From: Aureliella sp.
Lineage (GTDB): Bacteria; Planctomycetota; Planctomycetia; Pirellulales; Pirellulaceae
Length of the DNA stretch: 64,000 bases
NCBI GenBank assembly: GCA_046290675.1
Contig: JBKAHA010000019.1
Location: 18,742 to 82,741, forward strand
Direction: 5' to 3'
Shown one piece after another: positions 5,975-8,966 of this stretch (position 1 is the first letter of the stretch; every line of letters begins with the position of its first letter). The position numbers were made by a program, and so were the translations under genes. The notes beneath the pieces were generated by a model, which was given only the letters and a program-made list of their open reading frames with translations, was not told where the DNA came from and did no database searches.

Positions 5975-6541
5975 TTAGTCCATCAAGAACTGAAAGAAGT
6001 AGAGACCGCTGTAGACAACGACTTGGGTTGCACCGGTGTTAATGTCACCGTCATCCATGACTTTGTCGAGCTCGACCAGTTTGTCCTGTATTTTTCCATA
6101 CTGCCGGTTTTTGAATGCGATGCCGATTCCGAAGTTGGGCGCGAGCGTGCCTGGACCATTCCAATCGTACTGGCCGCCAAAGGGCTTCTTAGACCAGACC
6201 GCGGCGGGCAGCATTCCTTGCAATTCTGGAGGTTCCGTTCCCTCACTTGCGTCTGCCGGTAGCTGACCTGTTTCAGCCTTCACCAACTCGGCGGCAGAAG
6301 CGATGATCCGCATTTCGCGAGCTGTTGCGGCTAGAGTGGCCTCATCGCCACGGTCTTTGAAAACGGGTAGCGTCGCGGCGGCAAGAATCGCAATGATCAC
6401 GATGACCACAACCAATTCAATGAGCGTAAAGGCGGCTCGACTTTCTAATTGCGTTCTCAATGATCTATCACTCAATGGACCGAAGGTAGGGCGGGAGCAT
6501 GGCCCATGATGCGACGCATCGATAGGGATGCATGAAATCAA
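5975..6541 (-). CDS. Prepilin-type N-terminal cleavage/methylation protein (pseudopilin GspG-like)
   Basis: RAAFTLIELVVVIVIIAILAAATLP type IV pilin motif and KKPFGGQYDW GspG-like segment. Exact start uncertain. Confidence 0.75.
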   Translation of the reverse strand: MISCIPIDASHHGPCSRPTFGPLSDRSLRTQLESRAAFTLIELVVVIVIIAILAAATLPVFKDRGDEATLAATAREMRIIASAAELVKAETGQLPADASEGTEPPELQGMLPAAVWSKKPFGGQYDWNGPGTLAPNFGIGIAFKNRQYGKIQDKLVELDKVMDDGDINTGATQVVVYSGLYFFQFLMD

Positions 6542-6775
6542 ACGGCGTACTTCAACCTAGGTCCTTCTGACTGCCAGGTGGGCGACTCGCACGCTTTTGG
6601 CCGCTGGCGAGGTGCGTGAGGAGCTCCATGCCCATCTAATCTGAACAAGCGTCAAATTCGAATTCTGCACGCCGCCTCCCGCGGGAATTTTTGCGGTCTG
6701 GGTCGACTGTGCCTGCGGATGCCTAGGAGGATCGCATATTGGCGTAGATATTTCCGTTTCTCAACTGAGATCGCT

Positions 6776-8770
6776 ATGCGCGCCAAGTTCATTGCATTAA
6801 TCGTATTCATTTGGTTTTTCACCGTTGGAAGCAGCCTTGTTCACGCTGAAGCCGTTGAAGCAGCGGAAACGCCAGGCCTTTCGCAACGATTGGACATTCT
6901 GTGGGTGCTACTTGCGGCAGCCATGGTCTTCTTGATGCAAGCCGGATTCATGTGCGTTGAGTCAGGTCTGGCTCGTGCGAAGAATTCAATCAACGTTGCC
7001 ATCAAGAATATGGCGGACTTCCTGTTGGCCGTATTCTCGTTTTGGGCCGTAGGATTTGGGCTCATGTTTGGTGCGAGTTGGGGCGGCTGGATCGGGACGA
7101 CGGATTTCTTTGTCTCCGTAGAGGCGGATCCTTGGCTGGCCGCGTTTGTTGTGTTCCAAGCGGTCTTCGCGGGCACGGCAGCGACGATTGACTCGGGGGC
7201 CATCGCAGAACGGACTCGATTCGGAGCTTACCTTGTTGTTTCGTTGATTACTTCTGGATTGATCTATCCGATCTTTGGTCACTGGGCGTGGGGCAGCCTT
7301 TTCAATGGCGAAACTCAAGGTTGGCTCGAGGCAATGGGCTTTATCGACTTCGCCGGTTCTACGGTGGTGCACTCGGTTGGTGGCTGGGTGGCTTTAGCCG
7401 GAATCGTCGTTATCGGTCCTCGGCTGGGCAAATTTGAGAATGGCGAAGTTCGAAAGATCCAACCACACAGTTTGCCACTCGTTTACTTGGGCGTTTTCAT
7501 CCTGTTCTTCGGATGGTTTGGGTTCAATTGCGGGAGCACGCTCGAGGCGACCCCTAGCATCGCCGTCATCGCCTGGCACACGATGTTGGCGGCGTGCATC
7601 GCGGGAGCGACGAGCTCCGCGGTTAGTTGGATGATCGATGGTATGCCAGAACCAGAGATGATTGGGAACGGCGTTTTAGGCGGACTGGTTGGGATTACAG
7701 CGGGTTGCGCACACGTCTCTACAATGGGTTCGGTTGCCATCGGGGCTGGAGCGGGGATCACCGTATTTTTCGTAAGCCGCTTTGTTGAGCGAAAACTCAA
7801 GCTCGATGATGTCGTCGGCGCCGTAGCCGTCCACGGCGTCTGTGGTGCATTCGGTACCGTGGCGTTGGCTTTCTTCGTGGTGCCAGAAATGATGCCCGAA
7901 GGCGCGACGACCCTAGGCTTGCTCGGCGTTCAATTGACAGGTGTAGCGGCCTGTGCCGCTTGGTCGTTCGGGGTCGGATTCTTAGTACTGTCGATCGTGA
8001 ATGCGATTTGCCCATTGCGGGTAGATCCCGAAGACGAACGCGTTGGACTGAATGTCGCGGAGCATGGCGCCACCTCAAGCATGCTTGATCTGGTGAATTC
8101 AATGAGTCACGTCACGAAAACGGGTGACTATTCGGATAAGGCAATGGTCGAGCCCGAATACGGCACCGAAGTTGGTGATCTGGCCAGTTCCTTCAACGAG
8201 ATGGTCGGCGCGATTCGAGCCGAGAAAGATCTAAGCCAAGCAGCCGCTGACAGCGAGCGGACGAAAGCCGTCGAGCTTGAAAAGAGCCTCGCCAAAATGC
8301 GTCAGACCGACGCGAAAATGAAGGAAGAAAAACGCAAGCTACAGACGACCGCCGAGTCGACTGCAGGACTTACACGCCAGTTGGCCGAACGCGGCAACGA
8401 GACGATTGAAAGCTCGCTGGGTGCAATCGGCGGGATTAAAGATAGCTCGGCTCGAATCAACGAGGCCTTACAGGCTGTGACGGAGATCTCAGATCAAACC
8501 AACATGCTGGCCTTGAACGCCACCATCGAAGCGACTCGCGCGGGCGAAGCTGGCAAAGGTTTCGCCGTCGTCGCCAATGAGGTGAAGGAGCTTGCAAAGC
8601 AATCCCACTCGCTGGCGGGAGATATTGGTCGGTTGATCGACGAGAACGGCAAACGAATTGAAAATGGTGTTGAACTCGGCAACCAAACGAAAGAGGTCTT
8701 TCAAGAGATTATTGCGGCCAGCGAAGCGACAGCACGCGATATCAGCGAGCTTGCCGCAGCGCAGGACTAG
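6776..8770 (+). CDS. amt: Ammonium transporter fused to HAMP and methyl-accepting chemotaxis signalling domain
   Basis: ORF opens at 6719; probable ATG at 6776. Amt motifs [36 protein letters not shown]; HAMP-like [13 protein letters not shown]; MCP hairpin [34 protein letters not shown]. Confidence 0.9.
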
Positions 8771-8966
8771 CCAGCAGCAACCTATCAACAAGTTGGTTTC
8801 AACCAATTTGTTTGGGCGAAGCATCGTCGGCCCACCCTGCCCTTGCCCCATCCAGACAGGCGGGACATCTTTCAAGAACTCCATGAGTGAGCTCTTGCTT
8901 TGGCTGCTCAGTCCGTTGCTGCTTAAGCAAGGGTTTGGTCCTGTTACCTTCTGTGACCGACCTTTG

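Follow-up and report, generated by a model that had tools for sequence, protein, structure and literature searches.

An Amt-HAMP-MCP fusion protein of Aureliella sp. with a short, asymmetric chemoreceptor hairpin is a probable ammonium chemoreceptor

Analysis of a 64,000-nucleotide stretch of DNA from Aureliella sp. (contig JBKAHA010000019.1, positions 18,742 to 82,741; hereafter the window, in which positions are counted) revealed a gene at 6776-8770 that joins an ammonium transporter (Amt) domain, through a HAMP, to a methyl-accepting chemotaxis protein (MCP) signaling hairpin. The product is probably an ammonium receptor of the kind represented by Sd-Amt1 and Ks-Amt5, with a chemoreceptor hairpin as its output and CheA as the kinase under its control. 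Sensor Amts as such are already known, and the new detail is the minimal, asymmetric hairpin, which is conserved across the family. The gene and its parts are as follows.

6776..8770, forward strand: whole Amt-HAMP-MCP gene (single open reading frame, 664 aa plus stop)
6776..6847, forward strand: predicted signal peptide, residues 1-24 (read from the sequence, cleavage site inferred)
6899..8074, forward strand: Amt/Mep/Rh membrane domain, residues 42-433 (Pfam, NCBIfam, alignment to Sd-Amt1 8qj3)
8018..8080, forward strand: conserved region after transmembrane helix 11 (TM11), residues 415-435 (invariant columns of the Amt-MCP alignment)
8081..8218, forward strand: divergent HAMP (probable), residues 436-481 (sub-threshold Pfam match, Sd-Amt1 alignment, AlphaFold2 (AF2) model)
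8219..8329, forward strand: charged helical stalk of ~5 heptads, residues 482-518 (AF2, alignment)
8330..8767, forward strand: MCP signaling hairpin, residues 519-664 (Pfam, AF2, tip position, C-arm alignment)
8483..8605, forward strand: kinase-docking tip, residues 570-610 (canonical MCP tip consensus)

The reading frame is a single unbroken one of 664 codons, closed by a TAG stop at 8768-8770, and the three-part fusion proposed in the initial annotation was confirmed by the Pfam and NCBIfam domain assignments, with the HAMP falling just under its threshold. An alternative in-frame ATG at 6719 is possible and would add 19 residues; the start at 6776 was kept because its product has the length and tip position seen in the closest homologues, which are 660-672 aa long and have the tip at residues 588-593. 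The representative of the corresponding database cluster (P0002) is the identical 664-aa protein. The GC content is even across the junction of the Amt and MCP parts (0.54-0.57), and the AF2 model of the whole protein has a mean predicted local distance difference test score of 82.8. The putative signal peptide, as read from the sequence, has a basic n-region, a hydrophobic core, and V-H-A preceding E25, and in the AF2 model the N terminus comprises a helix at 2-14 and a low-confidence stretch at 17-31. Such a peptide would leave the N terminus extracellular, as in AmtB, and the C terminus cytoplasmic after 11 helices. Profile searches of the 664-aa protein found no sensor domain other than the Amt domain, and no transmembrane segment was found after it, in agreement with the earlier statement that the protein contains no further transmembrane sensor. 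A scan of the upstream DNA found no sigma-70-like promoter site, which says little for a planctomycete.

Both curated cut-offs for the Amt/Mep/Rh family are passed over the whole domain. Pfam Ammonium_transp (PF00909) matches residues 42-433 with an E value of 2.7e-112 and 375.8 bits (cut-off 23.2), covering profile positions 1-397 of 399, and NCBIfam TIGR00836 'amt' scores 395 bits against a cut-off of 343.3. In a comparison with all PDB sequences the best match of the domain was Sd-Amt1 (8qj3, 356 bits), followed by Ks-Amt5 (6eu6, 333 bits), with the Af-Amt1 transporter at 178 bits and AmtB at ~147 bits. Judged by sequence, the domain is far nearer to the Sd-Amt1 and Ks-Amt5 receptors than to the transporters. 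The alignment with Sd-Amt1 extends past the Amt domain and through the HAMP, to residue 493.

Residue roles were taken from Sd-Amt1 (PMC11152129) and transferred via the 8qj3 alignment. The twin-His and Phe-gate/Trp motifs listed in the initial annotation were all located, VVH at 197-199, AVH at 351-353, FQAVFA at 127-132, and GWFGF at 246-250. The vestibule residues W172 and S254 correspond to W139 and S225 of Sd-Amt1, the Phe gate F131/F250 to F98/F221, and the twin-His pair H199/H353 to H169/H323; the Trp/Ser vestibule, Phe gate, and twin-His pair that characterize the Amt family are therefore all present, and they are conserved in the Amt-MCP alignment. The mapping further assigns F58 and E62 to the entry of the internal site, Q55, E62, N78, D81, T137, and S140 to the N1/N2 ligands, K77 and Y152 to the switch, and N298 to the Asn that constricts the cytoplasmic exit in Sd-Amt1. 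Across 42 Amt-MCP homologues, every vestibule, gate, twin-His, N1/N2, switch, and exit residue is either invariant or conserved in 90% or more. After TM11 follows the invariant motif R415 V416 .. E421 .. G424 L425 N426 .. E429 H430 G431, which leads directly into the HAMP and is common to all four Amt paralogues of the genome.

Ks-Amt5 and Sd-Amt1 likewise keep the pore residues, and bind NH4+ at the internal N1/N2 site without net translocation (PMC5764959, PMC11152129). Because these characterized receptors retain the residues without net translocation, their presence here argues for ammonium selectivity and not for transport. Of the earlier description of intact transport residues in a transceptor, the retention of the residues thus stands, whereas a transceptor does not follow from it. 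The published ammonium-receptor signature, QX6EX15NX2D[F/T]X54-60TX2[S/T] (PMC11152129), is matched exactly (Q55, E62, N78, D81, F82, 54 residues, T137, S140). As a discriminator between sensors and transporters this N1/N2 signature failed, since a GlnK-linked paralogue in the same genome also has the ligands; it is necessary but not sufficient, and thus permissive. As in an ammonium receptor, a cytoplasmic transducer (HAMP plus MCPsignal) lies downstream of the Amt domain, and no P-II gene was found among the neighbors of the gene.

The segment that follows, residues 436-481, is probably a divergent HAMP. It matches Pfam HAMP (PF00672) with 23.3 bits, below the 25-bit cut-off, and a HAMP match at E <= 1e-3 is obtained for 13 of 42 family members. 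The same residues align with the HAMP of Sd-Amt1, and the AF2 model and the alignment together delineate its parts, an AS1 helix (435-449), a connector in which G463 and T464 are invariant, and AS2 from 465 onward. AS2 is prolonged by the stalk, ~37 residues that have no partner in the C-arm and vary in sequence among homologues. Insertions and deletions in the stalk appear in the alignment as whole blocks, and the close relative P0007 carries 77 additional residues, i.e. 11 heptads.

Pfam MCPsignal (PF00015) matches residues 530-663 with an E value of 1.4e-31 and 110.1 bits (cut-off 34.6), covering profile positions 4-151 of 172, and the hairpin tip is canonical. The AF2 model has a continuous helix at 465-518, an N-arm at 527-588, a turn at 589, and a C-arm at 590-662. 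The tip consensus is centered on R588-A-G-E591 and G595-F596, with E591 as the tip residue; 34-39 of the 71 residues around it are identical to those of the five other MCPs of the genome, and N581, A582, A586, A589, G590, V598, V599, and A600 are invariant in the family.

The initial annotation called the hairpin short, which is correct but understates the case, as the hairpin is also asymmetric. The C-arm has 73 residues beyond E591 (~10.4 heptads), compared with 110 aa from the end of the HAMP to the tip, and with arms so unequal the hairpin departs from the equal-arm pattern of the defined heptad classes (24H to 64H). The C-arm aligns ungapped with the C-arms of the five other MCPs and terminates at their E-E-Q motif. 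The four membrane MCPs of the genome are symmetric, with membrane-to-tip and C-arm lengths of 136/151, 131/134, 107/109, and 103/100. The hairpin contains no match to the Escherichia coli-type methylation consensus, a search of little power given that four of the five other MCPs have none either. Missing from the hairpin is the stretch of C-arm bearing the adaptation helix of longer receptors, and, like Aer, it probably signals with no methylation of its own. The tip would lie ~20 nm below the membrane (a rough estimate, from 110 residues at 1.5 Å plus ~3 nm for the HAMP), similar to the depth estimated for the two long membrane MCPs of 131 and 136 residues, of which one is encoded next to cheA.

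Measurements in 116 family members covered the length of the C-arm and the distance that separates the tip from the HAMP connector motif. The HAMP-to-tip distance falls into classes of 100 (7 proteins), 128 (21, including the present one), 163 (27), and 184 (25) residues. Distances congruent modulo 7 account for 91 of the 116, a count that is inflated by relatedness; 11 of the 25 distinct distance values lie in that residue class, against ~3.6 expected, and this comparison is less affected by relatedness. The C-arm measures ~72 residues at distances 100 and 128 and ~128 residues at 163 and 184, the 128/73 form being equal to the 184/128 form less eight heptads per arm. The spacing classes and the modulo 7 count fit a rigid coiled-coil link, and changes by whole heptads argue for a putative continuous coiled-coil register from HAMP to tip, favoring signal transmission over a floppy tether. 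The C-terminal end point is shared, to within a few residues, by homologues with identities as low as ~50%. In a tree of the Amt-HAMP part, which was used only to follow the spread of the short form, this form (N128/C~73) occurs in several branches, Desulfobacterota included, with a rooting that is unreliable; kinase-fused relatives nest inside the MCP-fused ones.

The architecture is widespread. PF00909 and PF00015 occur together in at least 100 of the best 120 protein clusters, drawn from NCBI, ENA, JGI, and Logan assemblies, with Blastopirellula, Rhodopirellula, Stieleria, Bremerella, Neorhodopirellula, Mucisphaera, Desulfopila, Desulfobacteraceae, Magnetomoraceae, and Tectomicrobia among the named sources. 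Full-length matches listed in species-representative genomes include a Myxococcales metagenome-assembled genome (MAG), Oceanispirochaeta, Leptospira perolatii, Thiohalospira, Roseibium aestuarii, Terasakiella pusilla, Roseospirillum parvum, Methylobacterium, and others, isolates among them. Amt-MCPs are thus found in Planctomycetota, Desulfobacterota, Myxococcota, Spirochaetota, Alphaproteobacteria, and Gammaproteobacteria, cultured strains included. By frame length, a rough measure, about ten candidates occur in 200 Pirellulales genomes; five of these belong to the same family, with long forms of 724-814 aa. A CheA dimerization domain was found in eight of the ten Pirellulales genomes with a candidate frame, and the other two are MAGs of 82% and 86% completeness. 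In one member, P0091 from Mucisphaera calidilacus, part of the N-arm tip consensus is absent, and the docking tip is not intact in every annotated Amt-MCP.

In one locus of another taxon the fusion lies beside che genes. The Myxococcales MAG contig JAPPOT010000886.1 (1-10295; locus L020) carries an 817-aa Amt-MCP divergent to cheA-cheW-mcp(HAMP x2)-cheR-cheD, where CheA was recognized from a tblastn match (37% identical over 399 aa) and the remaining che genes from Pfam matches. The cheA of this locus is split over several frames, perhaps owing to sequencing errors, the MAG being of low coverage. Direct fusions of an Amt to a CheA-like Hpt-HATPase kinase were found as well, in P0056 (976 aa, from a metagenome) and in a Spirochaetia MAG (L037:7986-10724); in the latter, a PAS-adenylate/guanylate cyclase gene follows the fusion.

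The Aureliella genome (7.7 Mb, 99.9% complete) encodes a single CheA of 761 aa, with Hpt, H-kinase_dim, and HATPase_c domains and two CheW-like domains, together with CheW, CheB, CheR, and CheX, so the absence of CheA and CheW, which the initial annotation had allowed for, is not observed, and its proposal of an ammonium chemoreceptor feeding a CheA pathway stands as a proposal. The search for a che cluster that it suggested yielded a single one, at C4:741-750 kb. Six MCPs are encoded, the Amt-MCP included. FliG (C4:724.7 kb) and flagellin (C4:706 kb) are located on the same contig, at distances of ~7 and ~25 kb, respectively, to the closest MCP genes of the che region, and of 17-35 kb to the main che cluster; FliM gave a sub-threshold profile match only, and the presence of flagellar genes is settled by FliG and flagellin. 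The relevant loci outside the window are the following.

G000:C4:740001-750000 (741-750 kb): cheA-cheW-mcp-HDOD-cheB-cheR-cheX cluster, the main che region
G000:C4:731841-739341, ~10 kb from the che cluster: two MCPs, of which one has a Tll0287-like sensor, plus a stand-alone CheB methylesterase domain, a REC-like-CheB, and a HATPase protein
G000:C9:279923-281179, reverse strand: soluble PAS-PAS-MCP of 418 aa with an 87-aa C-arm, 24H-like by arm length
G000:C6:52739-57250 (L017:2739-7250), reverse strand: 1503-aa Amt-PAS-HisKA-HATPase-REC-REC-Hpt hybrid kinase, the second sensor Amt

The genome contains four Amt genes, two stand-alone, one fused to the hybrid kinase, and the Amt-MCP gene. Since two stand-alone Amts exist, one of them with a P-II gene after it, the Amt-MCP gene is not needed for assimilation. 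On gene content, this is an organism with two different Amt-based sensors, in which uptake would be provided by the stand-alone Amts. The 1503-aa kinase has the same HAMP-like linker motif as the Amt-MCP, and the gene after it encodes a REC-PAS-GGDEF-EAL protein. In Pirellulales, an Amt of the hybrid-kinase type is common in frames of 1260-1390 aa.

Beyond the architecture, conserved residues, family spread, heptad spacing, and che inventory established above, the model that we infer extends to NH4+ binding, the lack of net transport, coupling to CheA, the sign of the response, and the oligomeric mechanism. External NH4+ would be selected at the W172/S254 vestibule, pass through the F131/F250 gate and the H199/H353 pair, and be diverted past F58/E62 to the internal N1/N2 site (E62, N78, D81, T137, S140). 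Occupancy of this site would flip the K77/Y152 switch and shift the conserved region after TM11, which in turn would drive the HAMP, as in Sd-Amt1. The HAMP would be coupled in fixed heptad register, via the ~5-heptad stalk, to the minimal hairpin of ~10 heptads per arm, whose tip may dock CheW and CheA and so modulate the cell's single, probably flagellar, Che pathway. MCP bundles are dimers, and Amts are trimers. In the model proposed for Sd-Amt1, itself a trimer, two of three HAMPs pair upon activation (PMC11152129). With this as the best template at hand, the Amt-MCP likely works as a unit in which ligand causes two HAMP-hairpin arms out of three to pair, and such pairing would itself create the four-helix bundle.

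Several points weigh against an ammonium receptor that controls CheA. The searchable literature yielded no experiment on any Amt-MCP. The GlnK-linked stand-alone paralogue shares the Q/E/K/N/D/T/S/Y/N set, D-I replacing D-F/T, and plant AMT1 transporters also carry the signature and fall in the same cluster (PMC11152129). With a hairpin shorter than that of any other receptor in the genome, and arms of unequal length, the protein is not assured of integration into an array. The AF2 model breaks the helix, with low confidence, at 519-526, which is awkward for a rigid link; in a monomer prediction this break is regarded as uncertain, because the whole-heptad changes argue for a continuous coiled-coil register. 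The mismatch between a trimeric Amt and a dimeric MCP still stands. As the initial annotation had remarked, no che gene is found in the flanks of the Amt-MCP gene, and no che gene was found within 8 kb in 13 of the 14 Amt-MCP loci of other taxa that were examined, a situation that is usual for MCP genes.

One alternative is a true transceptor, which, in the manner of yeast Mep2 or plant AMT1, would import ammonium and report flux or occupancy to CheA. The conduction path is indeed intact and conserved throughout, and the GlnK-linked paralogue, presumably a transporter, has the same N1/N2-type residues; moreover, the authors of the Sd-Amt1 study state that structure alone cannot exclude transport, and their cluster 2 of Amts includes proven transporters (PMC11152129). 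However, both of the characterized fused-sensor Amts show charge displacement and no translocation (PMC5764959, PMC11152129), N298 matches the exit-constricting Asn of Sd-Amt1, uptake is already served by the two stand-alone Amts, and no P-II gene lies beside the Amt-MCP gene. By these comparisons transport appears less likely than pure sensing, and we consider a transceptor unlikely. A hairpin that does not control CheA, and instead acts as a coiled-coil scaffold (for polar or array localization, or for Amt oligomerization) or addresses a partner outside chemotaxis, is less probable again. It would accommodate the unequal arms with a C-arm of only 73 aa, the lack of a match to the E. coli-type methylation consensus, and the orphan position of the gene, and the HDOD gene in the che cluster together with the GGDEF-HDOD gene upstream of cheA hints at links to c-di-GMP. 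Yet the tip, the part that docks CheA and CheW, is the best conserved segment outside the Amt domain, with many invariant columns, and resembles the tips found in the other MCPs of the genome; spacing by whole heptads suggests transmission of a signal over mere tethering, and in L020 a che cluster adjoins the Amt-MCP gene.

Two further explanations concern the integrity of the gene itself. The MCP part might have been shortened by a nonsense mutation, leaving an Amt with a dead tail, and read-through of the TAG does lengthen the MCPsignal match by 11 profile positions, with the stop located at the E-E-Q motif of the other MCPs. The same end point recurs, however, in P0003-P0017, P0023, and P0028 (to ~50% identity), with C-arms of 68-89 aa, and the frame past the TAG (8768-8887) runs for only 39 codons, none of them MCP-like in sequence. 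A stop position retained in such distant homologues was taken as a feature and not a lesion, and the weak profile continuation beyond it was judged to be chance; recent truncation was rejected on these grounds, and decay of the gene is very improbable. An assembly chimera of an amt and an mcp gene, named in the initial annotation as the other possible flaw, is more improbable still, has nothing in its favor, and can be dismissed: the best-matching clusters with both domains come from independent assemblies, full-length matches occur in isolate genomes, and composition is even over the junction. An ammonium receptor with a chemoreceptor hairpin as its output remains the preferred reading of the fusion.

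Among known systems, Sd-Amt1 of Shewanella denitrificans, an Amt-HAMP-GGDEF receptor (PDB 8qj3, 8qj4, 8qpf; PMC11152129), is not only the best PDB match but also shares the N1/N2 ligands, the Lys/Tyr switch, the exit Asn, the twin-His pair, the Phe gate, and the Trp/Ser vestibule, and in both proteins the HAMP directly follows the conserved C-terminal region. The two differ in output, a diguanylate cyclase in Sd-Amt1 and a hairpin aimed at CheA/CheW in the Amt-MCP, and in the ~5-heptad stalk that follows the HAMP of the latter. Ks-Amt5 of 'Ca. Kuenenia stuttgartiensis' (PDB 6eu6; PMC5764959) comes, like the Amt-MCP, from a planctomycete, and is a sensor Amt that carries a fused transducer in the cytoplasm and lacks a neighboring glnK. 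It differs from the Amt-MCP in having a HisKA-type kinase as output, and the analogue in the Aureliella genome is the 1503-aa Amt kinase on C6. The Amt-CheA-like kinases (P0056, L037) have a closely related Amt-HAMP, P0056 being 57% identical over 78% of the query and nesting beside the Amt-MCP clade in the tree, but in them the kinase is fused directly, with no receptor hairpin. Aer of E. coli is a methylation-independent chemoreceptor with PAS-FAD redox sensing and a full 36H bundle. It resembles the Amt-MCP in passing from a non-periplasmic sensing module through a HAMP to an MCP hairpin that needs no methylation sites of its own, and differs in its sensor, which in the Amt-MCP is an 11-helix membrane channel that is normally trimeric.

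Of the twelve heptad classes that MiST distinguishes, the shortest is 24H (PMC6943060), which is represented by PAS-PAS receptors in Vibrio cholerae (PMC7534058); the 418-aa PAS-PAS-MCP of the Aureliella genome has the same design. The Amt-MCP shares with the 24H receptors a canonical tip and a very short bundle. Compared by arm length, its 73-aa C-arm lies about two heptads below the 87-aa C-arm of the PAS-PAS-MCP, and its N-side is ~37 residues longer than its C-arm. A bolder proposal, possible but doubtful, is that the short Amt-MCPs (distance 100 or 128, C-arm ~72) form a receptor class below 24H that would be methylation-independent, its kinase-active four-helix bundle forming only when NH4+ pairs two of the three arms of an Amt trimer. 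If so, this would be the first molecularly defined bacterial ammonium chemoreceptor, in which ligand-gated dimerization under a trimeric channel feeds the array and a heptad-locked stalk sets the tip at baseplate depth.

Ammonium is a central currency of nitrogen, and sensor Amts are a recently established receptor class of which only two outputs, a histidine kinase and a diguanylate cyclase, have been studied. An MCP output would link sensor Amts to motility and is a likely route by which bacteria steer by ammonium; the cultured carriers render the idea directly testable. It also sharpens the structural problem posed by Sd-Amt1, that of a trimeric sensor driving a module that works as a dimer, which for MCPs becomes a trimer of dimers. 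The conserved minimal hairpin may set a natural lower bound on the MCP length needed for signaling. The searchable literature yielded no description of an Amt-MCP and no bacterial ammonium chemoreceptor defined in molecular terms, and neither of the two sensor-Amt papers (PMC5764959, PMC11152129) mentions chemotaxis or MCPs.

The genes flanking the Amt-MCP gene are unrelated to it and encode RuvX, a TrmK-like methyltransferase, a pilin-like protein, and hypothetical proteins. The Amt-MCP gene is divergent from its upstream neighbor and convergent with its downstream one, the former being as follows.

5975-6541, reverse strand: 188-aa protein bearing a type IV pilin-like motif (prokaryotic N-terminal methylation), immediately upstream and divergent

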